A program made the translations under genes and the position numbers. Shown piece after piece: positions 5,302 through 32,000 of a DNA stretch of 32,000 nucleotides (within the stretch, counting starts at the first letter, position 1; the number at the start of each line of letters is the position of its first letter). The DNA comes from Trichlorobacter lovleyi SZ (lineage in GTDB: Bacteria; Desulfobacterota; Desulfuromonadia; Geobacterales; Pseudopelobacteraceae): contig NC_010814.1 of the NCBI RefSeq assembly GCF_000020385.1, positions 2,100,001-2,132,000 of the forward strand, read 5' to 3'. Below the pieces are notes generated by a model that was not told where the DNA came from, ran no database searches, and was given only the letters and a program-made list of their open reading frames with translations.

Positions 5302-5984
5302 AGAGTAAAAAAATCATCCTGGTTCTGACCGGCCTGGCCATTGTGGCCCTGTTCTTTTACCTTGATCTGGGCCGCTATCTGACCCTTGAGAGTCTCAAGG
5401 CCAACCGTCAACTGCTGCAAACATTCTATGCTGATCATACGCTGCTGATGGTGGCAGCCTTCATGGGGGTCTACATCATCCAGACCGGCCTGGCCCTGCC
5501 CGGGGCCACCATCCTGTCGCTCTCTGCAGGCGCCATCTTCGGGCCGGTCATGGGTACGGTCTACGCTGTCAGTGCCGCCTCCATCGGTGCCACCCTCGCC
5601 TTTCTGTTCACCCGCTACCTGCTGCGGGATGCCGTGCTCAGAAGATTCGGCAACAGGCTTGAAGGAATGAACAAGGAGCTTGAAGAACGTGGCATCAACT
5701 ACCTGTTATTCCTGAGGCTAGTCCCACTCTTTCCGTTCTTTTTAATCAATCTGGCTGCGGGGCTGACCCGGCTGCCTTTGCGCACCTTTATGCTGGGCAC
5801 CTTCTTTGGCATCATTCCGGGCGGCTTTGTCTATGTCAACGCCGGGGCAAGCCTGGCCTCCATCAATGACCTGTCTGACATCGCTTCAGCACGGGTGCTG
5901 GGCTCCTTTGCCCTGCTGGGATTGTTTGCGCTGATCCCGGCTCTGTATGCACAATTCAAGAACAGGAACACGACTACCCCATGA
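5298..5984 (+). CDS. TVP38/TMEM64 (DedA-superfamily, SNARE-associated-like) membrane protein
   Basis: The GTG start overlaps the upstream stop (GTGA). It is a polytopic hydrophobic protein. The motifs LFLRLVPLFPFFLINLAAGLT and FGIIPG are typical of the family as I recall it. Confidence 0.78.
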   Translation: MKSKKIILVLTGLAIVALFFYLDLGRYLTLESLKANRQLLQTFYADHTLLMVAAFMGVYIIQTGLALPGATILSLSAGAIFGPVMGTVYAVSAASIGATLAFLFTRYLLRDAVLRRFGNRLEGMNKELEERGINYLLFLRLVPLFPFFLINLAAGLTRLPLRTFMLGTFFGIIPGGFVYVNAGASLASINDLSDIASARVLGSFALLGLFALIPALYAQFKNRNTTTP

Positions 5985-8983
5985 CCTTTGATCCACCCCG
6001 TTGGACTCGTTTTCAAGTCGATAACACGGCTGTCTGGCTCTGCCCTGATCGTCCTACCTGGTTTGTCCCCACCGCACATGGTGACCGGTTGCTGCAGCAG
6101 ATGCCGACCGACACGGCCAGTCAGGATCTTGCAACCGCAACCTTCCTGCAAAGGCTGCCCGATCCGCCTGCAAACAGCTACCAGGGCCGCCAGACGCTGC
6201 TGGGTACTACGCCGAAGCTACGGGAACTCTGGCTGCATATCACGGATCGTTGCAACCTGTCCTGCAGCCACTGCCTGTTCAGTTCCGGCCCGGACCAGGG
6301 ACGTCAGCTCTCACTGCAACAACTGAAACAGCATATTGATGATGCAGCAGCCCAGGGATGCCGCCTGTTTGCCCTGACCGGTGGAGAACCGCTGGTGCAC
6401 CCTGATTTTGCCGAGCTGATCGGCCATATCCTGGCCATACCGGACAGCCGGATTGCCGTTCTGACCAATGGTCTGTCTGTGGCTGACAAACTGGCTGCTG
6501 ACTGGCCCAGGCAGCGGATTCACCTGCAGATCAGCCTTGACGGCAGACCTGAACACCACGACCTGCTGCGGGGGGCTGGCAGTTTCAAACAACTGGAACA
6601 GCAACTGACCTGGTTGCAACAGCAGCACTGGCACTTTACCCTTAGCTGTTGCGTCACCAAGGAAAATGCCCGCGACCTGACCTGGCTGGTTGACTATGCT
6701 GCGGATCAAGGGGCTGCTGCACTGCACCTGATGTGGCACTTTATCCGTGGCCGGGGCAGCGTTGCCCAGCATCTGCAGCCGCCGGAACTGCTACAACCGG
6801 TACTGGCTGCCCTGCTGCGGGCAGAACAACGGGGCATCACCATCGACAACATCGAAAACCTGAAAGCTCAGATCTTCTCAGCACCGGGTACGATCCACGA
6901 CGGCTCCAGTGCAGGCTGGGAGGCAGGGGCCATCGGCCCGGATAATCAACTCTACCCCTCTGCAGCCACCATCGGCCTTGCTGAGCTGGCAACCCCACTG
7001 GATCAGGGACTTGTGCAGGCCTGGCAGCAAAGCCCCATACTGGCTCGGATCAGGCAAACCAGTGTAGCCGGTCTTTCCGATCCCTGGCGTTTTCTGCTGG
7101 GTGGCGGTGACCTTGATCATTGTTACCATCACAATGGCAGCTTTGTCGGCACTGATCCCTACCAACCCCTGTTTGAACAGCTGTCTCTGCTGCTGATCAA
7201 ACAGGCGGCAAACCGATTGCCTGAAGCTGCACAACCCGGACTGCGCCTCAAGATGGGAGAGCTGCTGGTCAGCTGCGACAGTCACGGCCCGGTGGCGCTC
7301 TGTCACACCAATTGTCTCCTGACACTGGAACCTTTTGCCGACAGTCGCAGCCGGGTGGGCAGCTACTACGCCGAGGCTGTTGGAGACAAGCGGCTGGAGA
7401 TCCTGAATCCGGTTCATTACGATGAAAACATGATGCAGCACATTCCCGCTGCCTTCCGTTTCAGGGGGTATGGCTGCGGCAGCCCGGTGCTGGATGCCTG
7501 CCTCAGACCGGGTGAGCAGATGGTAGATCTGGGCTGCGGCAGCGGCGTGGAATGTTTTATTGCCGCCCGGCTGGTGGGAAAAGACGGCATGGTAACCGGC
7601 ATTGATATGCTGGAGCCGATGCTTGATCTGGCCCAAAAGGGCGCAATTGAAGTACAAGAGCACCTTGGCTATAACAACCTGCAGTTTTTAAAAGGTTTTC
7701 TCGAATCACTTCCTGTTGCCGACAACTCACAGGACCTGGTGGTTTCCAACTGCGTATTGAACCTGTCTACCGATAAACGCAGCACCTTCAGCGAGATCCT
7801 GCGCATCCTGAAGCCGGGGGGCAGACTGGTGGCAGCAGATGTGGTCTGCGAGACGGAACCTGATGCCGCTATCCTGAATGACGAAAACCTGCGGGGTGAA
7901 TGTATCAGCGGCGCCCTGACCCAGAAAGACCTGCTGGGTATCCTGGATGAAAGCGGTTTCACCGGTTTCAGTGTGATCAAGCGCCTGCCCTACCGGGTGG
8001 TAAACAACCACCCGTTCTTTTCACTGACCTTTTGCGTGCGGAAGCCGGAAAACAGTTCTGAAACCGTACTGATCCTCTACCCCGGCCCTGCAGCAGGCTT
8101 GCTGGCACCCTCAGGTGCCTGGCTGCAGCCAGGGCAGGTCAACCGGATATCCAGGCAGGATGCGGATTTACTGGGCACCCAGGTCTGGCATCTGGACAGC
8201 CACGGCTTTGTCACCAATGTGACCATTGAGGCTGGTGCCAACTGCTCAAGAGCGCCGGAAGGCCGCACCAGGACGGCTGCTCAACCCCCAAGCAGACATG
8301 ATAGCGGCTGCCTGGTCTGCGGCGCCCCCCTGGTCTACCATCCGTTTGAGCAACAGATCGCCTGTCATTTCTGCGGCAAGACGCTGTCAGCCAACGCCTG
8401 CTGTGAACAGGGGCACTTTGTCTGTGACAGCTGCCATACCGACGATGCCTTAAGCCTGATTGAACACCTCTGCACAACCAGCGGCGTATCTGACCCGATC
8501 CAACTCATGAAGGAGATCCGTCGGCATCCTTCCATTCCGCTCCACGGCCCCCAATATCATGCCCTGGTGCCAGGCGTTTTACTGGCCGGCCTGCGTGCTG
8601 CCGGACATCCGGTTACCACAGAACAACTTTTTGCCGCTATCCGGCGTGGTGGTGAGGTCGGTGGCGGCAGCTGTGGTTTCATGGGGATCTGCGGTGCAGC
8701 TACCGGTACAGGTATCGCATTTAGTGTGTTGTTGGAGGCGACACCTCTCAAGGCGGCCAGACGTCAGACCGTGCAACAGGTTGTGCAACAGGTGCTGGCC
8801 GAGATAGCGGGATATGAGGCAGCCCGCTGCTGTCAGCGTGATTGCTGGATCGCCCTGCGCACCGGAATGCGGCTTGCTGCAGAGCTGTTCAGCCTGAAGC
8901 TTCCTGCTGTTGAGCCTTTTTGCTGTACCCAGATGGCCCGAAATCATGAATGTCTGGGACTGGACTGCCCACTCTGGCCATAG
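5981..8983 (+). CDS. 1000-aa fusion protein: radical SAM domain + complete ArsM-type As(III) SAM-methyltransferase + zinc-ribbon + C_GCAxxG_C_C-like Cys-rich domain
   Basis: The ATGA start overlaps the TVP38 stop. Residues ~80-300 carry CNLSCSHC (CxxxCxxC) and LTGGEPL. Residues ~458-760 carry YYAEAV, YGCGSP, VDLGCGSG, SNCVLNLSTDK, LKPGGRL and GECISGAL, which are the three As(III)-binding Cys contexts of CmArsM, with the same 50-residue spacing between the last two. Residues ~775-1000 carry CLVC...CHFC...CC...CDSC, then GGGSCGFMGICGAATG and CCQRDC. Confidence 0.85.
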   Translation: MTFDPPRWTRFQVDNTAVWLCPDRPTWFVPTAHGDRLLQQMPTDTASQDLATATFLQRLPDPPANSYQGRQTLLGTTPKLRELWLHITDRCNLSCSHCLFSSGPDQGRQLSLQQLKQHIDDAAAQGCRLFALTGGEPLVHPDFAELIGHILAIPDSRIAVLTNGLSVADKLAADWPRQRIHLQISLDGRPEHHDLLRGAGSFKQLEQQLTWLQQQHWHFTLSCCVTKENARDLTWLVDYAADQGAAALHLMWHFIRGRGSVAQHLQPPELLQPVLAALLRAEQRGITIDNIENLKAQIFSAPGTIHDGSSAGWEAGAIGPDNQLYPSAATIGLAELATPLDQGLVQAWQQSPILARIRQTSVAGLSDPWRFLLGGGDLDHCYHHNGSFVGTDPYQPLFEQLSLLLIKQAANRLPEAAQPGLRLKMGELLVSCDSHGPVALCHTNCLLTLEPFADSRSRVGSYYAEAVGDKRLEILNPVHYDENMMQHIPAAFRFRGYGCGSPVLDACLRPGEQMVDLGCGSGVECFIAARLVGKDGMVTGIDMLEPMLDLAQKGAIEVQEHLGYNNLQFLKGFLESLPVADNSQDLVVSNCVLNLSTDKRSTFSEILRILKPGGRLVAADVVCETEPDAAILNDENLRGECISGALTQKDLLGILDESGFTGFSVIKRLPYRVVNNHPFFSLTFCVRKPENSSETVLILYPGPAAGLLAPSGAWLQPGQVNRISRQDADLLGTQVWHLDSHGFVTNVTIEAGANCSRAPEGRTRTAAQPPSRHDSGCLVCGAPLVYHPFEQQIACHFCGKTLSANACCEQGHFVCDSCHTDDALSLIEHLCTTSGVSDPIQLMKEIRRHPSIPLHGPQYHALVPGVLLAGLRAAGHPVTTEQLFAAIRRGGEVGGGSCGFMGICGAATGTGIAFSVLLEATPLKAARRQTVQQVVQQVLAEIAGYEAARCCQRDCWIALRTGMRLAAELFSLKLPAVEPFCCTQMARNHECLGLDCPLWP

Positions 8984-21701: not shown

Positions 21702-22817
21702 CTACACCGTCAGATCAACATCCTGTAACGATCCAACACTGCCATCTTCTTTCAGGTAGACACTGCTTGCCCGCAACGTACCGAGAGACTCATTGACACC
21801 GGTCTTGATATCAAATTCCGTGGAGACCGCCCCCAAATAGAGAGCACCCACCCCGCTGATTTTCAAACCAGTCAGAGACTCATTGCCTTGTGCGTCCCGT
21901 GTCCAGGCCTTTAATTGGCTGAATACCGGATCGTTATCATCGATCCAGCCATTTTTGTCCTGATCATAGGCAGCCAGGTCTTGAAAACCATTGCCACTGA
22001 CCGTGCCAAACAGTTCGCTGCCGTCATTAATTGTGCCGTCTCCATTTTTATCCAGAGCTATAAAACCGCTATTGGGTCCGACAAATGAAATCTGCTCTGC
22101 AGTTCCATCCGAGTTGATGTCAAAGCTGAATTTTGTGTCGGTCAGTTGAGCCGCGGTACCGCCAAAGTTAATAACCAGAGGATCTTGCTGTTTCAATACG
22201 GCATCCCCCATCCGGATGCTGGTGGTCTGTTCGGTGGCAACTACTCGCTGCATAGTAAACTCAAGGCTAAAGTCAACCTGTTTACCATCAGTGGTTCTTA
22301 CTACTCCCTTAGTAGAAAAACTCATCAGCTCTGCCTCAAGTGTAGTCTGCTGTGCATCGTATTCCAGGCCAAACCCCATCGGCGCAACGGGCTGTTGCGG
22401 GGTTGTCTGTGGTTGCGATAACGCCGCAGCCTGACTTGCAGCTTGAGTTAACTCAGCAGCCTTTTCCGGATCAACATTTTCTACCTGTGGAGATACTCTC
22501 GTCAACTTGATCTTCTTTCCGGTAAGCAACTCCATCAGGACACTGATAAATTTTGATACCGGATCGCTCGCGGCTGCCGCATCATCATCTTCCCTTGATC
22601 TGACCGATCTGGTCTGATTGCCCTGGCCATGGGTCGCAGATCGGGCCTGCTGCGACAAGTCAACATTGTCACGTGTCAACAGCTGTAACCCTTCTCCCAT
22701 CTTCTCAAAATCAGGTCGTTGATTGCCAACCCAGACCTTGAGTGATTCAGATTTGCTTTCCTCTTTCACTGCAATGTGCTGGCTGGTCATCTGGATATCT
22801 GAACTTTGAATTTTCAT
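21702..22817 (-). CDS. hypothetical protein with three C-terminal EF-hand/dockerin-like calcium-binding loops; no signal peptide
   Basis: The ATG at 22817 lies 6 nt after GGGGAGG; the track start at 22868 is a GTG without an SD. Calcium-binding loops: DINSDGTAEQI, DKNGDGTINDGSE and DQDKNGWIDDND. The N-terminus MKIQSSDIQMTSQH is hydrophilic. Confidence 0.75.
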   Translation of the reverse strand: MKIQSSDIQMTSQHIAVKEESKSESLKVWVGNQRPDFEKMGEGLQLLTRDNVDLSQQARSATHGQGNQTRSVRSREDDDAAAASDPVSKFISVLMELLTGKKIKLTRVSPQVENVDPEKAAELTQAASQAAALSQPQTTPQQPVAPMGFGLEYDAQQTTLEAELMSFSTKGVVRTTDGKQVDFSLEFTMQRVVATEQTTSIRMGDAVLKQQDPLVINFGGTAAQLTDTKFSFDINSDGTAEQISFVGPNSGFIALDKNGDGTINDGSELFGTVSGNGFQDLAAYDQDKNGWIDDNDPVFSQLKAWTRDAQGNESLTGLKISGVGALYLGAVSTEFDIKTGVNESLGTLRASSVYLKEDGSVGSLQDVDLTV

Positions 22818-22858
22818 GGCAGCCTCCCCAATAACCGGCATTACTGCATATGGGGTTC

Positions 22859-22866
22859 TTATCGGC
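22859..22866 (-). promoter_or_regulatory. possible sigma-28 (FliA) -10 element
   Basis: The minus strand reads GCCGATAA, an 8/8 match to the enterobacterial sigma-28 -10 consensus. It lies 42 nt upstream of the ATG at 22817. No convincing TAAA -35 element is present at the expected spacing. Confidence 0.25.
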
Positions 22867-22974
22867 ACTTTCTGAAAACAATGAAAAGCACGTTCTTGCT
22901 CCTTGACTTACCCGCAATCCATGCTTACCTCATAAACAACAGGTACAAAGAGTACCTTTGAAAGGAAGCTGGTT

Positions 22975-25723: not shown

Positions 25724-27349
25724 ATGAAACGCCAGATCCGTATTGTTTTTTATCTCGTTTTAGCGTCAGTTCTACTCTCTACCTATCTGTGGGCAGAACA
25801 ATGGAAGATCAGCTTCAATGGTTACCCTGGAACAATGGAACTTTCAGGGGGCCAGAGCAACTACACCGGACGTTTTAACCTGCATGGCAACTGGGAACAG
25901 ATGCTGGATCTGCAGGTGTACCGCAATGCCATATTCTTCCGCCGTGCTGCGGCCGATCAAAAATATCTGGGAGTCATGGAGGGAGGCCGGATGCAGGGGG
26001 TCTTTACCCAGCACGGTTCCGGCCGCTATCCATGGACTGCAGAACGTACTGACATCGTCTCAATTGATCCGGTGGTGCCTCCACTCTCCGGTGGAGACAC
26101 AGGAGCAGTTAAAAATCTCGCCTTGAGAAAACAGGCCCGCCAATCATCCACCAGTTATGGTGGCACTCCGGAACGCGCTGTAGACGGTAACCGCGATGGC
26201 AACCATAATGCAGGTTCTGTTTCGCATACGGCCAATGTGCCGAATGATTGGTGGGAGGTTGACCTTGGCAGCCAGAAACAGATCCAGGAAATCAAACTCT
26301 GGAACCGGACAGACTGCTGCAGTGAGCGGCTCTCTAATTTTTACGTCCTGGTCTCACCCAATCCGTTTTCAGGTAACAATCTGAAGGCATTGCTGAATGA
26401 TCCGTCCATCTGGCACTTCCACCATCAGGGTGCCGCTGCACGGGAGACAACGGTTGCTGTTGCCGGCGAGGGACGCTATGTCCGCGTTCAGCTTGCCGGT
26501 CAGAACTGGCTGTCATTGGCAGAGGTCGAGGTATTCGGACATGACAGCAGTGGCAGTACAGCATATCCTGTCGACACCGGCTCAGGCACTCCGGTTACCA
26601 TCTATTGGCACATGGCTGATGACGCTGATGTCTATTTGAACGGCAAGGCCTTGCGCTCATACTCACCTTCGTTCAAAACCCGCCCTGATGAAGCACCACG
26701 GCCTGCTTTCTCAGCCAGAGCCACCCTGCATAACGGCGATATCTTTACGGTCGGAGGCCGCAGAGGGGGCAGCTTCGGACTGATGCTGCTGGCAGTTGAT
26801 GATGGCGGCAGAATAGTCTTCAAAACTGATCGCAGCTCCTGGGCTGTCTACGAACCGGATGAGCGCTCTGACTGGTACGAGCCGGCCGTGGCAAACAGCT
26901 CAGCCAAGCGTCCGGTCACCGTTCAACCAGACCCCTGGTATCCCCAAAAAGAATTAAATGCCAGATATCACAACACTGCGCTCTCCATCTGGAGTGAACC
27001 TGACAAACGTTTTGCCTACCTGGTGGGTACGGTCAGGCTGTCTGATCAGGCCACCGGCACGATCAACCCGGTCGGAACTTGGCGCCACCACCCCACTGCA
27101 ACCTGGGTGGTTTCACAGGGTGCTGACGGCCGTTACCACGCCCAGGAACATGGTCTGGGAAACGCCTCAGGACCGGCCTATTTCACCCCTGCCGGCAGTT
27201 TCAGGATTGATTACGTTACCCGTGATGGCGCAGTAACCGGCTTCTATGAAGTCACCTTTGCACCTGACGGCCATACCGCAACAGGCAGAGTTCAGGAACT
27301 TTCCGGGCCACGCCGCAGCGGCAACACCAGTTGGACAAAGGTACGCTAG
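25724..27349 (+). CDS. secreted multidomain protein with a fucolectin/F5-8 type C (discoidin-like) carbohydrate-binding domain
   Basis: Signal peptide IVFYLVLASVLLSTYLWA. The central block NLALRKQARQSS...AVDGN...HT...WWEVDLG...IQEIKLWNRTDCCSERL...VRV is the FTP/discoidin pattern. The flanking domains are unassigned. AGGGGGA lies before the ATG. Confidence 0.78.
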   Translation: MKRQIRIVFYLVLASVLLSTYLWAEQWKISFNGYPGTMELSGGQSNYTGRFNLHGNWEQMLDLQVYRNAIFFRRAAADQKYLGVMEGGRMQGVFTQHGSGRYPWTAERTDIVSIDPVVPPLSGGDTGAVKNLALRKQARQSSTSYGGTPERAVDGNRDGNHNAGSVSHTANVPNDWWEVDLGSQKQIQEIKLWNRTDCCSERLSNFYVLVSPNPFSGNNLKALLNDPSIWHFHHQGAAARETTVAVAGEGRYVRVQLAGQNWLSLAEVEVFGHDSSGSTAYPVDTGSGTPVTIYWHMADDADVYLNGKALRSYSPSFKTRPDEAPRPAFSARATLHNGDIFTVGGRRGGSFGLMLLAVDDGGRIVFKTDRSSWAVYEPDERSDWYEPAVANSSAKRPVTVQPDPWYPQKELNARYHNTALSIWSEPDKRFAYLVGTVRLSDQATGTINPVGTWRHHPTATWVVSQGADGRYHAQEHGLGNASGPAYFTPAGSFRIDYVTRDGAVTGFYEVTFAPDGHTATGRVQELSGPRRSGNTSWTKVR

Positions 27350-27401: not shown

Positions 27402-27839
27402 ATGAAACATCTGCTCATAATAGTTGTGGCTGTACTGTTGACCGTTTTTCTGTGCCATCCAGCTGTTTCGGCTGACCAACAGGGACAGAATGTCCCGTCA
27501 GAGATTAAACAGTACCTTGAGCAGCGAGGTCTGCAGATCACGGCAACTGTAGCGGATGTCAAAAAGACCGGGTACATTTTGGTACTGGGAACAGCCAACG
27601 GAGATAAAGTTGCCGCCAAACGCGCTGCAACAGTGACTGCCCAACGCGCCATAGTCTCACTGTTGGCAGAACTGCCGTCCAGCAAGGGAAAGGCAGGCAA
27701 ACAGGTAGTCAGGACACCACCAGTGACAAAAACCAGGGTTTCTGGAACGGTTCGACGGGCAACGCCTCTCTTCAGTCACTATGATAGCTCGGATAAGACC
27801 ATGTACCTGTTGTTGCAAAAGCCGGTCGCCGTGCCTTGA
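27402..27839 (+). CDS. small exported hypothetical protein
   Basis: Signal peptide MKHLLIIVVAVLLTVFLCHPAVSA. It lies 52 nt downstream of the previous gene and is followed by a terminator hairpin. I recognise no family. Confidence 0.62.
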   Translation: MKHLLIIVVAVLLTVFLCHPAVSADQQGQNVPSEIKQYLEQRGLQITATVADVKKTGYILVLGTANGDKVAAKRAATVTAQRAIVSLLAELPSSKGKAGKQVVRTPPVTKTRVSGTVRRATPLFSHYDSSDKTMYLLLQKPVAVP

Positions 27840-27869
27840 ATCTTTTAGACTCAAAAGTACGTAGAACAC

Positions 27870-27893
27870 AAATGGGGGCATCAGCCCCCATTT
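27870..27893 (+). terminator. perfect hairpin terminator
   Basis: AAATGGGGG (27870-27878) pairs with CCCCCATTT (27885-27893), with a 6-nt loop. It lies 31 nt after the stop at 27839. Confidence 0.65.
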
Positions 27894-27958
27894 GCATTTA
27901 TGCAACATTGCAGATAATCCAATCGTTGTTTGCACAAATGCAAACCGTGCATTTGACA
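27892..27958. promoter_or_regulatory. candidate enhancer (UAS) sites for a sigma-54 activator
   Basis: Two inverted repeats of the same design: TTGCA-N4-TGCAA at 27892-27905 and TTTGCA-N4-TGCAAA at 27929-27944. Their centres are 38 bp apart. A related half-site, TGCATTTGACA, lies at 27948-27958. The repeats lie about 135-190 bp upstream of the -24/-12 promoter. Confidence 0.45.
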
Positions 27959-27982: not shown

Positions 27983-27995
27983 TATCAAAGTCTTG
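27983..27995 (+). promoter_or_regulatory. IHF-binding core candidate
   Basis: TATCAAAGTCTTG fits WATCAANNNNTTR exactly. It sits in an A/T-rich stretch between the inverted repeats and the sigma-54 promoter. Confidence 0.4.
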
Positions 27996-28077: not shown

Positions 28078-28093
28078 TGGCATAACGTTTGCT
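28078..28093 (+). promoter_or_regulatory. sigma-54 (-24/-12) promoter
   Basis: TGGCAT-AACGT-TTGCT, with GG at 28079-28080 and GC at 28091-28092 (GG-N10-GC). Only one mismatch to TGGCAC-N5-TTGCW. The predicted start is near 28104, 33 nt before the SD-preceded ATG at 28137. Confidence 0.7.
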
Positions 28094-28136: not shown

Positions 28137-28331
28137 ATGCCGAACAAACCGATCTGCCCGTTTTATGGAAAAAATGATGATTTCTGCGATGTCGGGTGCG
28201 GCTATATCTCACCATACGACGTCAACATGATCATCCGCTACTGCAGTAAACGCTACTGCGAATGTGCAAAATACCAGGAACTGGCAGACCGTTATCCCCA
28301 AAAAGATATGCTGCTTGTCGCTGCAGCCTGA
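28137..28331 (+). CDS. 64-aa cysteine-rich hypothetical protein (6 Cys)
   Basis: The ATG at 28137 lies 7 nt after AGGA. The track start at 28089 is the TTG inside the -12 promoter element, so it is rejected. Sequence MPNKPICPFYGKNDDFCDVGCGYISPYDVNMIIRYCSKRYCECAKY. I recognise no family. Confidence 0.6.
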   Translation: MPNKPICPFYGKNDDFCDVGCGYISPYDVNMIIRYCSKRYCECAKYQELADRYPQKDMLLVAAA

Positions 28332-28343
28332 AAGGAATCTCCC

Positions 28344-28466
28344 ATGCTCTACATGCTTGCGAGCAAGACGGACCCTGCAACGCTTCTGATAGTCCTTACA
28401 GTTAGTATACTGTTTACCGTCGTCATCTTTGCAAAGGAGAAGAGACATGACCCAAAGAGAGCTTGA
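28344..28466 (+). CDS. possible 40-codon single-TM micro-protein (too short for the ORF track)
   Basis: The ATG at 28344 lies about 7 nt after AAAGGAA. Translated by hand: MLYMLASKTDPATLLIVLTVSILFTVVIFAKEKRHDPKRA. It has one hydrophobic helix followed by basic residues. Its stop at 28464-28466 overlaps the next gene's start by 20 nt. Confidence 0.3.
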   Translation: MLYMLASKTDPATLLIVLTVSILFTVVIFAKEKRHDPKRA

Positions 28467-28698
28467 ATTGATGCAGCGGATCGAAGAACTGGAGCGCCAC
28501 ACCTGGCGTAACAGCTCCATCCTGCGGGCAGTTGCCATGGTTTCCTTCACCGCCATGGTGGGGATCATTGTTGCAGCTGGTGTCATTGGTGGTGGACACG
28601 GCAGTCATTGGTCCGGCCCAGCCTGGAACACCATGTGGCTGTATGGCCTGTTTGCCGCCAATGCGGTCTCAATGTTCTGGACCACTCACAAGGATTAG
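28447..28698 (+). CDS. 83-aa hypothetical membrane protein (N-terminal charged helix + 2 predicted TM)
   Basis: The ATG at 28447 lies 7 nt after AAGGAG (28434-28439). MTQRELELMQRIEELERH is followed by the hydrophobic segments AVAMVSFTAMVGIIVAAGVIGG and MWLYGLFAANAVSMFW. Confidence 0.6.
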   Translation: MTQRELELMQRIEELERHTWRNSSILRAVAMVSFTAMVGIIVAAGVIGGGHGSHWSGPAWNTMWLYGLFAANAVSMFWTTHKD

Positions 28699-28711
28699 GA
28701 GGAGATCTGTC

Positions 28712-29761
28712 ATGCCGATGAAACTATCCCACGCTGCACTGCTGCTGGTGGTCTGTGTTATCTGTGCCGCCTTCAACATGCGTATCTTTCAAGGTCTGGA
28801 TGACATGATGGGCGACAACTACTGGGTCGTTGACACCACTCAGGGCGATCATGGCTGGTATGCCATGGGGCTGCTGCCACACCTCAAGACCGTTCCCAAG
28901 GATGTCGTCAGGGCAGCCAATACTGACGCAACCATAAAAGACAAGTTTATCATCTACGCCCAGAGCGGCGATTTTGCCGGCAACTCGGTCTATGGTATCT
29001 GCTTTGGCATCCCACTGATCATGTACCTGATCTGGTTTGCCTTTATTCTCGGATTTCCAGATCGGGTTGACCCCTATCTGTTACCTCGAAGGATATTTAC
29101 CCTTGCCGTTATTGTTGCCTGTTCAGTCATTGTCAACCTGTTCCTGATGCGTATTGCCGCCGACTTCATCCGTGACCCGATGGCCCGTATTGCCAACATT
29201 GCAGGTAACCATTCGTCACTACTGTTCCACAACGCCGGCATCTGGTTTGCCATCCTGTTCTCTGCTCTGGGAACCCACAATCATTCCTATAACGAGGCGC
29301 CGGCACCGGATAGCCGTAACTGGCAGACCCAGGCTTCAGAAAAATTCAACTGGCTCTTCACACTGCTGGCCTTTGTCACCATCCTTGAAGTAGCACTGGT
29401 TAAAAACAAGCTTGCCCTGCCGGACGCTGCGGTTGATTACTCGGTCTGGATTATCTGGGTGGTTATTTTCATGCGTATGTTTGGTTTTTCCCCCAAGTAC
29501 TGGATCAAGCGGATTCCCGGTATCTCAATCATGCTTGTCGGTACGCTGCTGACCCTGCCTGTCTTCTACCTGCTTGAGCGGGTAACCGGTACCCTTGGCG
29601 CCGGCTTTGCATCACCAATTCTTGCCAAGGCACTGGGTGCAGAGAACCAGAATATCGGTCTCTCACTGATGATCTCAATCTACCTCGTCTTCTGGATGGA
29701 GTTTGCCGCTGCCATCCGTATGAACGGCCCAGTGAAAAAAGCGGTACCTGAAAAGGCCTAA
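28712..29761 (+). CDS. 349-aa polytopic (about 8 TM) hypothetical membrane protein
   Basis: The ATG at 28712 lies 9 nt after AGGAGG (28697-28702). The track start at 28532 would overlap the whole preceding gene. There are multiple long hydrophobic segments and a roughly 80-aa loop after the first helix. I recognise no family. Confidence 0.8.
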   Translation: MPMKLSHAALLLVVCVICAAFNMRIFQGLDDMMGDNYWVVDTTQGDHGWYAMGLLPHLKTVPKDVVRAANTDATIKDKFIIYAQSGDFAGNSVYGICFGIPLIMYLIWFAFILGFPDRVDPYLLPRRIFTLAVIVACSVIVNLFLMRIAADFIRDPMARIANIAGNHSSLLFHNAGIWFAILFSALGTHNHSYNEAPAPDSRNWQTQASEKFNWLFTLLAFVTILEVALVKNKLALPDAAVDYSVWIIWVVIFMRMFGFSPKYWIKRIPGISIMLVGTLLTLPVFYLLERVTGTLGAGFASPILAKALGAENQNIGLSLMISIYLVFWMEFAAAIRMNGPVKKAVPEKA

Positions 29762-30028: not shown

Positions 30029-32000
30029 ATGAGACAGCCAATCCAAGCTTTTAGAGCTGCCCAGATTTTACCCACAATGTCACCGTTTGCTGCGGCATGC
30101 AGCTGTTTTTGCATTGTTTTAATCATGCTCATGCTGTTGGGGGCAGCGCCGGTCAACGGAAACCAGACCGTTAACACCAATCCGACTATTGAACTGACAC
30201 CTGCAGAAAAGGGTTGGATAACTGCTCATAAGCATATCAAGGTAGGAATTGATCCCTCATTCCCGCCGCTCAAGTTCAGTGACAACGGAACCATCAAAGG
30301 TCTCGAACTTGACTACCTTAAACTGTTATCTGAAAGGATAGGGCTACAGTTTGAACCGGTAGTTGCCGGTTTCACTGTTTTGGACGAAATGGTTAAATCC
30401 GGTGAGGTGGACATGTTTATTTCGTTCAACATCCCGGAACGGCTCGCTTATATGCAGTTCACTGACCCGTTAATTGAATTCAAGCAGATCATCATTAGCC
30501 GCCAGGACGCCCCGTTTCTAAGCGGCCTCAGTTCTTTGAAAGGCAAAAAAGTTGCCACGGTCCGTGGAGTAAAACTCTACGACAAACTTTTGAGACCCTA
30601 CCCTGAAATCCAGGTGGTTCAATTCAGTTCAATGGATCAAATGTTCCGGGCTGTCTCTGAACACAAGGCAGATGTCTTGATTTCACGAACATTGTATGCA
30701 GGGCACATCATCAACAACTATCCTGATCTGAAGGTTGCCGGCGTTATTGATCTTCCAGCGGAACCATATCGCTATGCAGTTCGTAAAGAGTATCCCGAGC
30801 TTGTCACTATTCTGAACAAGGCCATCAGCACTATCTCCAGAGATCAGCACGACCTGCTTGCACAGAAGTGGTTCAACATCACCATCGACTACCGTGCCCG
30901 CTGGTCTGACATCCCGATCTGGGTCTACCTGCTGGGCGGCGTAGTTATCCTTTTCAGCACCGTTATTATTGTTTCGAACAGGCGCCTCAAACGTGAAATG
31001 GCAGAGCGCAACAGGGCAGAGCAAGCCAGCGCTGATAGCGCAAAACAGCTAAATGCCATTATCAACACAACAGATGCGGGCATAATTCTGGTTTCTCCGC
31101 TGGGAGTGATTGAATTCGCCAATAACCGCATGGCCGATATGTTTACCTTGCCGCTCAATGACCTGATCGGCACCAGATATGTCGAGCGCCTGCATCCTTC
31201 TGAGCGTCAAATTGGCGATGAACGCATGCGGCAGCTGATTAAAGGCGAAATCCGCTCAGTAACCCTGGATCGACATTACATCAGAGCTGACGGGACTGAC
31301 TTCTGGGGGCACCTGTCAGGCAGCCGCATGGAGCATGCTGACGGCAGCCTCAAATCGCTGGTTGGCGTTATTTCGGATATTACCCATCGCAAACAGGCCG
31401 AAGACACCTTGCGTGAAATGGAGGCAACGGCACAGGCAGCCAAGCGCCACCTAGAAGAGGCACAGCGGATAGCACACCTCGGAAGCTGGCAGCTGAATAT
31501 TGTCAGCAATCAGCTAGTCTGGTCTAAAGAGTGTTATGCAATTTTCGGTATTCAACAAGACACGTCTCTGACGTTTGAATCCTTTGTAAACTGCATCCAT
31601 CCTGACGATCGGGACTTGGTGTCTACTGCCTGGAGCAGTGCGCTTACCGGAGCGCCCTACGATATTACCCATCGCATTTGTGTCGGCGACAAGGTGAAAT
31701 GGGTTGTCGAGCAGGCTGACATAGTCTTTGACAACAACGGGAATGCCCTGCATGGGGTCGGCACGGTCCAGGATATTACCGAACGCAAGGAAACCGATAA
31801 CGCGCTACGGGAAGCAAAAGAGCGTTTCCAGTTTGTGATTGAAGGAAGCCAGCTAGGGTTCTGGGACTGGGATATTGCAACCGGCAGTGTGATACGCAAC
31901 GAGCGTTGGGCTGAGATGCTTGGCTACACCGTTCAGGATATTGAAAATAGTGTCAGGCAATGGATTGACTATATCCACCCGGACGACAGAGACCCTGCGA
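30029..32000 (+). CDS. sensor protein: family-3 solute-binding periplasmic domain-TM-at least three PAS domains; 3' end lies outside the window
   Basis: It is absent from the ORF track because no stop codon is reached. I translated it by hand from the ATG at 30029, which lies 8 nt after GGGAG. It has a signal/TM segment, then KVGIDPSFPPLKF...GLELDYLKLL (SBP_bac_3-like), then the TM segment IWVYLLGGVVILFSTVIIV. Repeated PAS blocks end in DITHRK and DITERK. Confidence 0.85.
   Translation, partial: MRQPIQAFRAAQILPTMSPFAAACSCFCIVLIMLMLLGAAPVNGNQTVNTNPTIELTPAEKGWITAHKHIKVGIDPSFPPLKFSDNGTIKGLELDYLKLLSERIGLQFEPVVAGFTVLDEMVKSGEVDMFISFNIPERLAYMQFTDPLIEFKQIIISRQDAPFLSGLSSLKGKKVATVRGVKLYDKLLRPYPEIQVVQFSSMDQMFRAVSEHKADVLISRTLYAGHIINNYPDLKVAGVIDLPAEPYRYAVRKEYPELVTILNKAISTISRDQHDLLAQKWFNITIDYRARWSDIPIWVYLLGGVVILFSTVIIVSNRRLKREMAERNRAEQASADSAKQLNAIINTTDAGIILVSPLGVIEFANNRMADMFTLPLNDLIGTRYVERLHPSERQIGDERMRQLIKGEIRSVTLDRHYIRADGTDFWGHLSGSRMEHADGSLKSLVGVISDITHRKQAEDTLREMEATAQAAKRHLEEAQRIAHLGSWQLNIVSNQLVWSKECYAIFGIQQDTSLTFESFVNCIHPDDRDLVSTAWSSALTGAPYDITHRICVGDKVKWVVEQADIVFDNNGNALHGVGTVQDITERKETDNALREAKERFQFVIEGSQLGFWDWDIATGSVIRNERWAEMLGYTVQDIENSVRQWIDYIHPDDRDPA

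Follow-up and report, generated by a model that had tools for sequence, protein, structure and literature searches.

What is the function of a sigma-54-dependent operon whose four products match no described protein family? This question is raised by a locus in a 32-kb stretch of the Trichlorobacter lovleyi SZ genome (referred to here as the window), in which four genes, designated A through D, lie on the forward strand between terminator-like hairpins (Table 1). A preliminary description of this DNA, made from the sequence alone, had called the locus a compact, sigma-54-dependent operon encoding membrane proteins, both small and polytopic, together with a Cys-rich soluble protein, had placed its products in no recognized family, and had likened it to stress-response or transport modules. 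All four open reading frames (ORFs) were found where that description had put them, the operon character is supported, and none of the four products has a match in Pfam or NCBIfam. With regard to function, comparative evidence favors transport, whereas metal, redox or envelope stress is suggested by none of the observations. Our reading, to which we assign a probability of roughly 50%, is that this is a carboxylate-induced operon in which C and D form a transporter of a new family.

Relatives of D were sought in one genome per GTDB species, which yielded 157 stretches of DNA, 80 of which were kept as loci for comparison. D itself had 201 homologs in a word-index search; the best 120 were approximately 80 to 97% identical to it, and all of these named to taxon came from Geobacteraceae, across whose genera D remains about 80% identical. 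Named homologs are called hypothetical or putative membrane proteins. C was present in 79 of the 80 loci and is 81 to 100% identical across the Geobacterales, which is high for an 83-aa membrane protein. The lone exception lies at a contig end (Trichlorobacter thiogenes, L002:1-345), where homology to D breaks off ahead of codon 5 and the preceding 345 nt show no relation to C; a rearrangement, an insertion or an assembly artifact might account for this break. Some JGI entries name C homologs "nitric oxide reductase large subunit," a label that looks spurious. A was found upstream of C-D in every locus with upstream DNA (77 of 77), always in the order A-(B)-C-D, so that A, C and D are syntenic throughout, a co-conservation that the preliminary description had proposed to test. 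The C and D proteins of the window are identical to ACD95717.1 and ACD95718.1 of T. lovleyi (formerly Geobacter lovleyi) ATCC BAA-1151. On the evidence of this synteny, A-B-C-D is the T. lovleyi copy of a Geobacterales-wide operon.

The two small upstream genes differ in how they are conserved. For A, 176 homologs were found at 62 to 95% identity (the best 120 at 64 to 95%), and all those named to taxon were again Geobacteraceae. The six cysteines previously listed for this protein (positions 7, 17, 21, 36, 41 and 43) are all present; five of them (C7, C17, C21, C36 and C43) are invariant among the homologs, with the spacing C-x9-C-x3-C-x14-C-x6-C, whereas C41 varies. A profile search of the PDB with the A alignment was empty at E values up to 10. 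The 40-aa peptide with a single transmembrane (TM) segment, B, had been offered as a possibility and is a conserved micro-ORF in about 68 of 79 loci, missing from Geomonas-type loci. Where present, it is exactly 40 codons long, begins with MLY, combines a hydrophobic core with a basic tail (MLY..hydrophobic..KEKRxDxKRA) and overlaps C by 20 nt, and it keeps this form, frame and length at only 32 to 92% identity. Because the form is conserved despite the diverged sequence, we take B to be a real, conserved and translated micro-protein, and the overlap of its reading frame with that of C suggests that the two are translationally coupled.

To go beyond the Geobacterales, we used an exhaustive HMMER profile search, in which D had only 22 matches among 1.84 billion representative proteins. 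The full-length matches among these came from one bacterial lineage at 53% identity and four lineages at 28 to 35% identity. Another search, started from the distant D set, returned 48 proteins, of which the few that were named belonged to Thermoplasmata archaea and to one Firmicutes metagenome-assembled genome. Directly upstream of every distant D with recovered upstream DNA was a gene for a C-like protein of 77 to 95 aa, and these proteins align with C in the charged N-terminal helix, the two TM segments and a WNT..LYGL motif. In the non-Geobacterales loci inspected, no Cys-rich ORF resembling A was seen beside C-D, which marks C-D as the core. We therefore regard this gene pair, as judged from its distribution, as an ancient conserved functional core, and A and B as additions confined to the Geobacterales that would be accessory parts.

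How the operon is regulated was approached through the DNA upstream of A. The preliminary description had proposed a sigma-54 promoter there, and the element TGGCATAACGTTTGCT is present, with an equivalent in 75 of 77 orthologous loci. Within the window alone, this pattern is not above chance (two matches versus 2.3 expected), and we regard the second TGGC..TTGC match, at 29596 within D, as a chance occurrence. Across the orthologous loci, in contrast, the 260 nt preceding A were scored for an element with canonically spaced GG and GC and a match at 9 or more of 11 core bases; 75 of 77 loci have one, versus approximately 6% of random 260-nt segments from the same loci. Farther upstream is a cluster of TGCA-N4-TGCA palindromes: three of the four occurrences of this motif in the window fall within 27893-27942. 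The same palindrome occurs upstream of A in 72 of 77 loci, usually in one to four copies (at least two in 57 loci). Its density reaches 4.8 per kb over the 450 nt that precede A, versus 0.03 per kb over the remaining 800 kb of the loci, an enrichment of about 160-fold. Between the palindromes and the promoter, one further site resembles the IHF consensus, WATCAANNNNTTR.

The label "orphan," which had been attached to the operon, holds for the window, which encodes no sigma-54 activator gene (Sigma54_activat), but not for its relatives. In Geobacter pickeringii and Geobacter metallireducens, genes for a kinase and a regulator lie directly upstream of A-B-C-D; the six genes of G. metallireducens span about 770.6-776.1 kb of CP000148.1. 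The kinase comprises 655 aa with tandem Cache, HAMP, HisKA and HATPase domains; the regulator, of approximately 460 aa, is of the NtrC type (Response_reg, Sigma54_activat and HTH_8). Orthologs of this pair adjoin the operon in about 29 of the 80 loci, in two arrangements, either preceding it on its own strand or converging on it from downstream, and this speaks for a functional link and against mere inheritance of gene order. L090, the most divergent of the bacterial D lineages (53% identity), has the regulator gene immediately ahead of a sigma-54-like element and C-D, with no A- or B-like ORF between the regulator gene and C-D. Six loci (L018, L059, L070, L074, L075 and L077) also have TGCA-N4-TGCA about 80 to 110 nt ahead of the Cache kinase gene, which suggests autoregulation of the kinase and regulator genes. 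The periplasmic region of the kinase had only four significant relatives in the PDB, all of them sCache domains of chemoreceptors (2QHK and its re-refinement 4EXO, 4K08, and 5G4Y/5G4Z). Pyruvate is the ligand in 4EXO and acetate in 4K08, and PscD (5G4Y) binds C2/C3 carboxylates (PMC5062169). Since the only significant PDB relatives of the sensor are C2/C3 carboxylate-binding domains, we infer that the kinase senses short-chain monocarboxylates.

Genomic neighbors point in the same direction. In the Thermoplasmata, C-D is immediately preceded, on its own strand, by a gene for an AMP-forming acetate-CoA ligase (a partial protein; NF003313, E = 4e-176), with gaps of 54 nt from the ligase gene to C and 10 nt between C and D; members of this group are 62 to 100% identical to one another. 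In a second archaeal lineage, the C terminus of the same ligase is encoded upstream, and the alpha subunit of an ADP-forming acetate-CoA ligase immediately downstream (TIGR02717, E = 1.4e-154). The gene immediately upstream of C in the Firmicutes clade encodes an L-lactate MFS transporter of the SfMCT type (NCBIfam equivalog, 415 bits versus a cutoff of 320), and convergent downstream genes there encode subunits of an indolepyruvate-type oxidoreductase and a PaaK-type ligase, with a lactate permease in two of four contexts. For the Geobacterales, neighbors were identified by clustering all flanking ORFs in the loci. In 31 of 80 loci, an SfMCT-type MFS gene (404 bits, cutoff 320) follows D by 20 to 160 nt and is thus an apparent fifth gene of the operon. 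In four loci (L061:3270-4192, L031, L028 and L019), the operon adjoins a GPR1/FUN34/YaaH (SatP/AceTr) gene, which in L061 encodes 209 aa (PF01184, E = 2.4e-34). All four of these satP-like genes have a sigma-54 promoter of their own (TGGTAT-N5-TTGCT at -70), and TGCA-N4-TGCA lies upstream of three; the fourth (L028) has just 125 nt of upstream DNA. From these shared elements, the satP-like genes look like members of the same regulon as A-B-C-D. A fatty-acid CoA ligase gene was found near the operon in 8 Geobacterales loci and an NDH-2 gene in 9, and in 20 of 80 loci a gene for a TehB-like S-adenosylmethionine (SAM) methyltransferase is divergent from the A promoter region (e.g., L069:4512-5168, reverse strand). 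Carboxylate handling is favored because the regulator, the coregulated genes, and the archaeal and Firmicutes neighbors all point to C2/C3 monocarboxylates. We consider it likely that A-B-C-D belongs to a C2/C3 carboxylate regulon, together with the SatP-like and SfMCT-like carriers and the kinase and regulator genes.

The predicted structure of D is compatible with a carrier. An AF2 model based on an alignment that included five distant homologs reached a predicted local distance difference test (pLDDT) value of 80.6 and a predicted template modeling (pTM) score of 0.82, versus a pLDDT of 42.7 when 18 close homologs were used alone. The eight TM segments claimed earlier are found in the model; the extracytoplasmic loop, however, which had been put at 80 residues, spans about 57 (residues 34 to 90). 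It contains short strands, lies between TM1 and TM2, and is predicted to be periplasmic. A lysine at position 4 and four Lys or Arg residues in the C-terminal tail fit a cytoplasmic location of both termini. Invariant or nearly so in all lineages are residues D30, N142, R147, D151 (or E), S169, K211 and D242, the last six of which lie inside or at the ends of TM helices; the motifs GD[FY][AS]G, before TM2, and GLSL are also kept across lineages. The universally invariant positions are mostly Gly, Pro, Trp and Phe, together with D30, D87, N142, S169, K211 and D242, and include neither His nor Cys. The predicted anatomy of D, with eight TM helices, cytoplasmic termini and conserved polar or charged TM residues, is thus transporter-like. 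Within D, the TM2-loop-TM3 region (residues 100 to 150; IW..GFPDR..RR) resembles TM6-loop-TM7 (residues 244 to 292; IW..GFSPK..KR), which hints at a 4+4 TM duplication; the repeat was weak by hhalign (P = 0.009, probability 4.6%), and we do not rely on it.

Searches for a known family or fold to which these proteins might belong were negative throughout. None of A through D had a significant match in Pfam, NCBIfam, PADLOC or PHROGs. A sequence profile search of the PDB with the D alignment returned nothing at E values up to 10, and a Foldseek search with the D model, a check proposed in the preliminary description, found no fold match in the PDB or BFVD at E values up to 0.001 (best TM-score ≤0.25), Foldseek being less sensitive for helical bundles. 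Particular candidates were also rejected. Membership of D in the sodium/solute symporter family (SSF) and of C in DUF485 lacked any Pfam or NCBIfam match, and the C profile aligned with Escherichia coli YjcH at an hhalign probability of 0.8%. Assignment to AceTr/GPR1-FUN34-YaaH (SatP), judged by a PF01184 match with the NPAPLGL and YGxFW motifs, failed in that none of A through D matched PF01184. D has no Pfam match to MFS (PF07690), has 8 TM segments, and resembles the SLC16-like SfMCT structures 6G9X/6HCL in Foldseek at only E = 0.79 and a TM-score of 0.13. Matches to the two-subunit pyruvate carriers LrgA/LrgB (PftAB) were absent for C and D at E values up to 1 and for 14 C-family members at E values up to 10. 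Matches of the C family to ZIP and DctQ were subthreshold and inconsistent. Finally, anti-phage defense or prophage cargo was rejected, as none of A through D matched PADLOC or PHROGs.

Several known systems share either the gene order or the regulatory logic of the operon. The order found in the Thermoplasmata, with a ligase, a small C-like protein with two TM segments (77 to 82 aa) and a polytopic D-like protein on one strand with gaps of 10 to 54 nt, mirrors E. coli acs-yjcH-actP (NC_000913 annotation). Given the comparison of C with YjcH, we regard this as a nonhomologous echo: ActP is a 549-aa sodium/solute symporter, whereas D has 349 aa, 8 TM segments and no SSF match in Pfam. Regulation also differs, the C-D operon having a sigma-54 promoter and a putative two-component system. 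Carboxylate-sensing two-component systems that drive carrier genes include DctB/DctD-dctA, MctSR-mctP and LytST-pftAB. The proposed circuit follows the logic of the sigma-54-dependent rhizobial DctB/DctD-dctA system, with a periplasmic Cache-type kinase, an NtrC-family enhancer-binding regulator, palindromes, a -24/-12 promoter and a putative membrane carrier operon. In contrast to DctB, which senses C4-dicarboxylates, the sensor here is a tandem sCache_2 protein most like C2/C3 monocarboxylate binders; moreover, regulator genes are not linked to the operon in this window, and DctA, MctP and LrgAB are unrelated to its membrane proteins. The SatP/AceTr acetate-succinate channels share neighborhoods, the sigma-54 promoter and TGCA-N4-TGCA with the C-D operon, and the SfMCT-type MFS carriers share its transcription unit in appearance, yet D belongs to neither family by the searches described above. 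The kind of system is familiar, a two-component system and a sigma-54 promoter over an uptake operon, whereas the protein family, and perhaps the fold, is not.

In the circuit that we infer, which extends to regulator binding, the inducing ligand, the C-D complex, its transport activity and its substrate, a periplasmic tandem-sCache histidine kinase would sense acids of the acetate, pyruvate, propionate or lactate type. This kinase, adjacent to the operon in many relatives, would be encoded elsewhere in the T. lovleyi genome and would phosphorylate an NtrC-type enhancer-binding response regulator. The regulator would in turn bind the TGCA-N4-TGCA palindromes about 135 to 185 nt upstream and activate the sigma-54 promoter at 28078-28093, producing a transcript that would start about 12 nt downstream of 28092 and encode A, B, C and D. 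C and D would form a two-subunit inner-membrane transporter of an undescribed family that moves C2/C3 carboxylates into the cell, with acetate as the prime candidate. A, with its five invariant cysteines, would be a cytoplasmic accessory part and B an accessory single-TM micro-protein. That C-D is a carboxylate transporter we hold at even odds or slightly below. More tentative still, and in our estimate rather less probable than its negation, is the broader proposal that C-D represents a new superfamily, possibly with a new fold, of two-subunit secondary transporters for acetate or other C2/C3 carboxylates, spread over Geobacterales, Thermoplasmata and a Firmicutes clade and, joined in Geobacteraceae by the Cys-rich cytoplasmic protein and the micro-protein, constituting there a major unrecognized, sensing-coupled route for the key electron donor.

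Several points weigh against a carboxylate-induced transporter. No transport assay, expression data or literature was found for any member: the operon is not mentioned in papers on the Geobacter sulfurreducens RpoN regulon, the G. metallireducens genome, or proteomics, nor did accessions or guessed Gmet locus tags lead to it. The functional call rests on guilt by association. Because the window has no activator gene, regulation in T. lovleyi is extrapolated from the shared palindromes. The D model rests on a shallow alignment of 22 sequences, and the five models ranged in pLDDT from 62.6 to 80.6. A terminator-like hairpin after the Firmicutes MFS gene indicates that adjacency there is not cotranscription. 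In addition, acetate is already served in Geobacter by Apl sodium/solute symporters (PMC7894505), and with these in place and MFS and SatP-type transporters encoded in the very same neighborhoods, a further transporter may be redundant.

Redundancy also underlies a competing explanation, in which C-D does lie in the carboxylate regulon but forms an accessory or regulatory membrane module rather than a transporter. Such a module might be a flux co-sensor to the kinase (like DctA-DctB or DcuB-DcuS), a partner subunit of the MFS or SatP carrier, or a protection against weak acids or uncoupling. With SfMCT-type MFS and SatP-like carriers in the same operon or regulon, yet another carrier would seem superfluous. 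No relation between D and a transporter family or fold was detected, and the extreme conservation of D (~80% across genera) would fit many interaction partners. In this window, however, C-D stands without an MFS, SatP or kinase gene, and its sole same-strand partner in the Thermoplasmata is an acetate-CoA ligase. This argues that C-D acts autonomously, supplying or handling the substrate of the ligase. We consider the accessory module unlikely, though the most probable of the alternatives.

The ligases invite a different account as well, namely, that D is a polytopic membrane enzyme (an acyl- or acetyltransferase, or one modifying lipids or the envelope) that consumes ligase-made acyl-CoA, with C as its small subunit. 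Genes forming acyl-CoA recur among the neighbors (archaeal Acs and ACD, the PaaK-type ligase of Firmicutes, and the fatty-acid CoA ligase in 8 Geobacterales loci), and the size and TM count of D are like those of some membrane acyltransferases. We nevertheless judge it improbable, since D has no Pfam match to MBOAT, Acyl_transf_3 or any enzyme family and no invariant His or Cys, and since uptake agrees better with its coregulation alongside a sensor and two carriers for carboxylates. Lower still do we rank a stress module (metal, redox or envelope), close to an idea of the preliminary description; here A would bind a metal or an Fe-S cluster and the membrane proteins would handle the metal ion. 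The five invariant cysteines of A speak for it, as do weak, subthreshold matches of 4 of 14 C-family members to ZIP zinc transporters (best E = 0.012). These matches are far under the cutoff (13.7 versus 35.1 bits), no metal-related gene occurs among the conserved neighbors, and the linked sensor resembles carboxylate-binding sCache domains. Moreover, A is absent from all non-Geobacterales C-D loci inspected and so cannot define the core function. We retain carboxylate uptake by C-D as our working explanation; the features of the unit in T. lovleyi are collected in Table 1.

Table 1. Features of the A-B-C-D operon and its boundaries, by position in the window
Feature	Position	Strand	Description
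Gene A	28137-28331	+	64-aa soluble Cys-rich protein
Gene B	28344-28466	+	40-aa micro-protein, one TM segment
Gene C	28447-28698	+	83 aa, two TM segments after a charged N-terminal helix; proposed small subunit of the core
Gene D	28712-29761	+	349 aa, 8 TM segments; proposed large subunit of the core
Sigma-54 (-24/-12) promoter	28078-28093	+	TGGCATAACGTTTGCT; GG/GC spacing kept in 75/77 loci
TGCA-N4-TGCA palindrome cluster	27893-27904, 27901-27912, 27931-27942	.	Putative upstream activator sequence
N5 palindrome variant	27939-27951	.	Same cluster
IHF-like consensus match	27983-27995	+	TATCAAAGTCTTG; between palindromes and promoter; single match, read directly
Terminator hairpin of the preceding 145-aa gene	27869-27894	+	5′ boundary of the unit
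Two neighboring terminator hairpins after the D stop codon	29767-29818	+	-32.5 kcal/mol, z = -3.96

The layout of the unit is compact. A Shine-Dalgarno-like purine run precedes each of the four genes, and the spacing previously given as 13 nt or overlapping is correct for C-D (13 nt) and for B and C, but the A-B gap measures 12 nt. On the 5′ side, the boundary hairpin has an 11-bp GC-rich stem followed by UUUGCAUUU (65-nt segment, -23.1 kcal/mol, z = -4.75). The tandem terminator proposed after D exists as two hairpins, the first with a 7-bp stem and the second with a 12-bp GC-rich stem; the U-tract behind the second, however, is weak on the forward strand. An Rfam scan of the window gave no match.

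Other genes of the window were noted as follows. Directly upstream of the operon on the forward strand lie a 541-aa ORF with an F5/8 type C (NedA-like galactose-binding) domain (25724-27349) and a 145-aa ORF with a hydrophobic N terminus and no family (27402-27839), both separated from the operon by the terminator. Just past the operon terminators, a large sensor that combines a periplasmic SBP_bac_3 domain with a TM segment and multiple PAS domains begins at 30029 and continues past the window end (30029-32000, forward strand); no evidence was found linking it to the operon. Elsewhere, a 1,000-aa fusion of radical SAM, SAM-methyltransferase and DUF5714 domains (5981-8983, forward strand) has an unusual architecture, and a 388-aa ORF (21702-22868, reverse strand) had no Pfam match at E values up to 0.001.

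In sediments, bioremediation and bioelectrochemical systems, Geobacter-type bacteria obtain their electrons mainly from acetate and related short-chain acids. Uptake of these acids has so far been credited to Apl sodium/solute symporters, and the present work points to a second system, encoded by an operon that is near-universal among the Geobacterales genomes sampled. Because the proposed circuit is defined in its parts (an sCache kinase, an NtrC-type activator, a palindrome and a sigma-54 promoter), it is directly testable. If C-D is a carrier, it would represent a new transporter family common to bacteria and archaea and would provide a handle on the control of carboxylate scavenging in electroactive bacteria. 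If it is not, C-D would still be an uncharacterized, strongly selected part of the carboxylate response.

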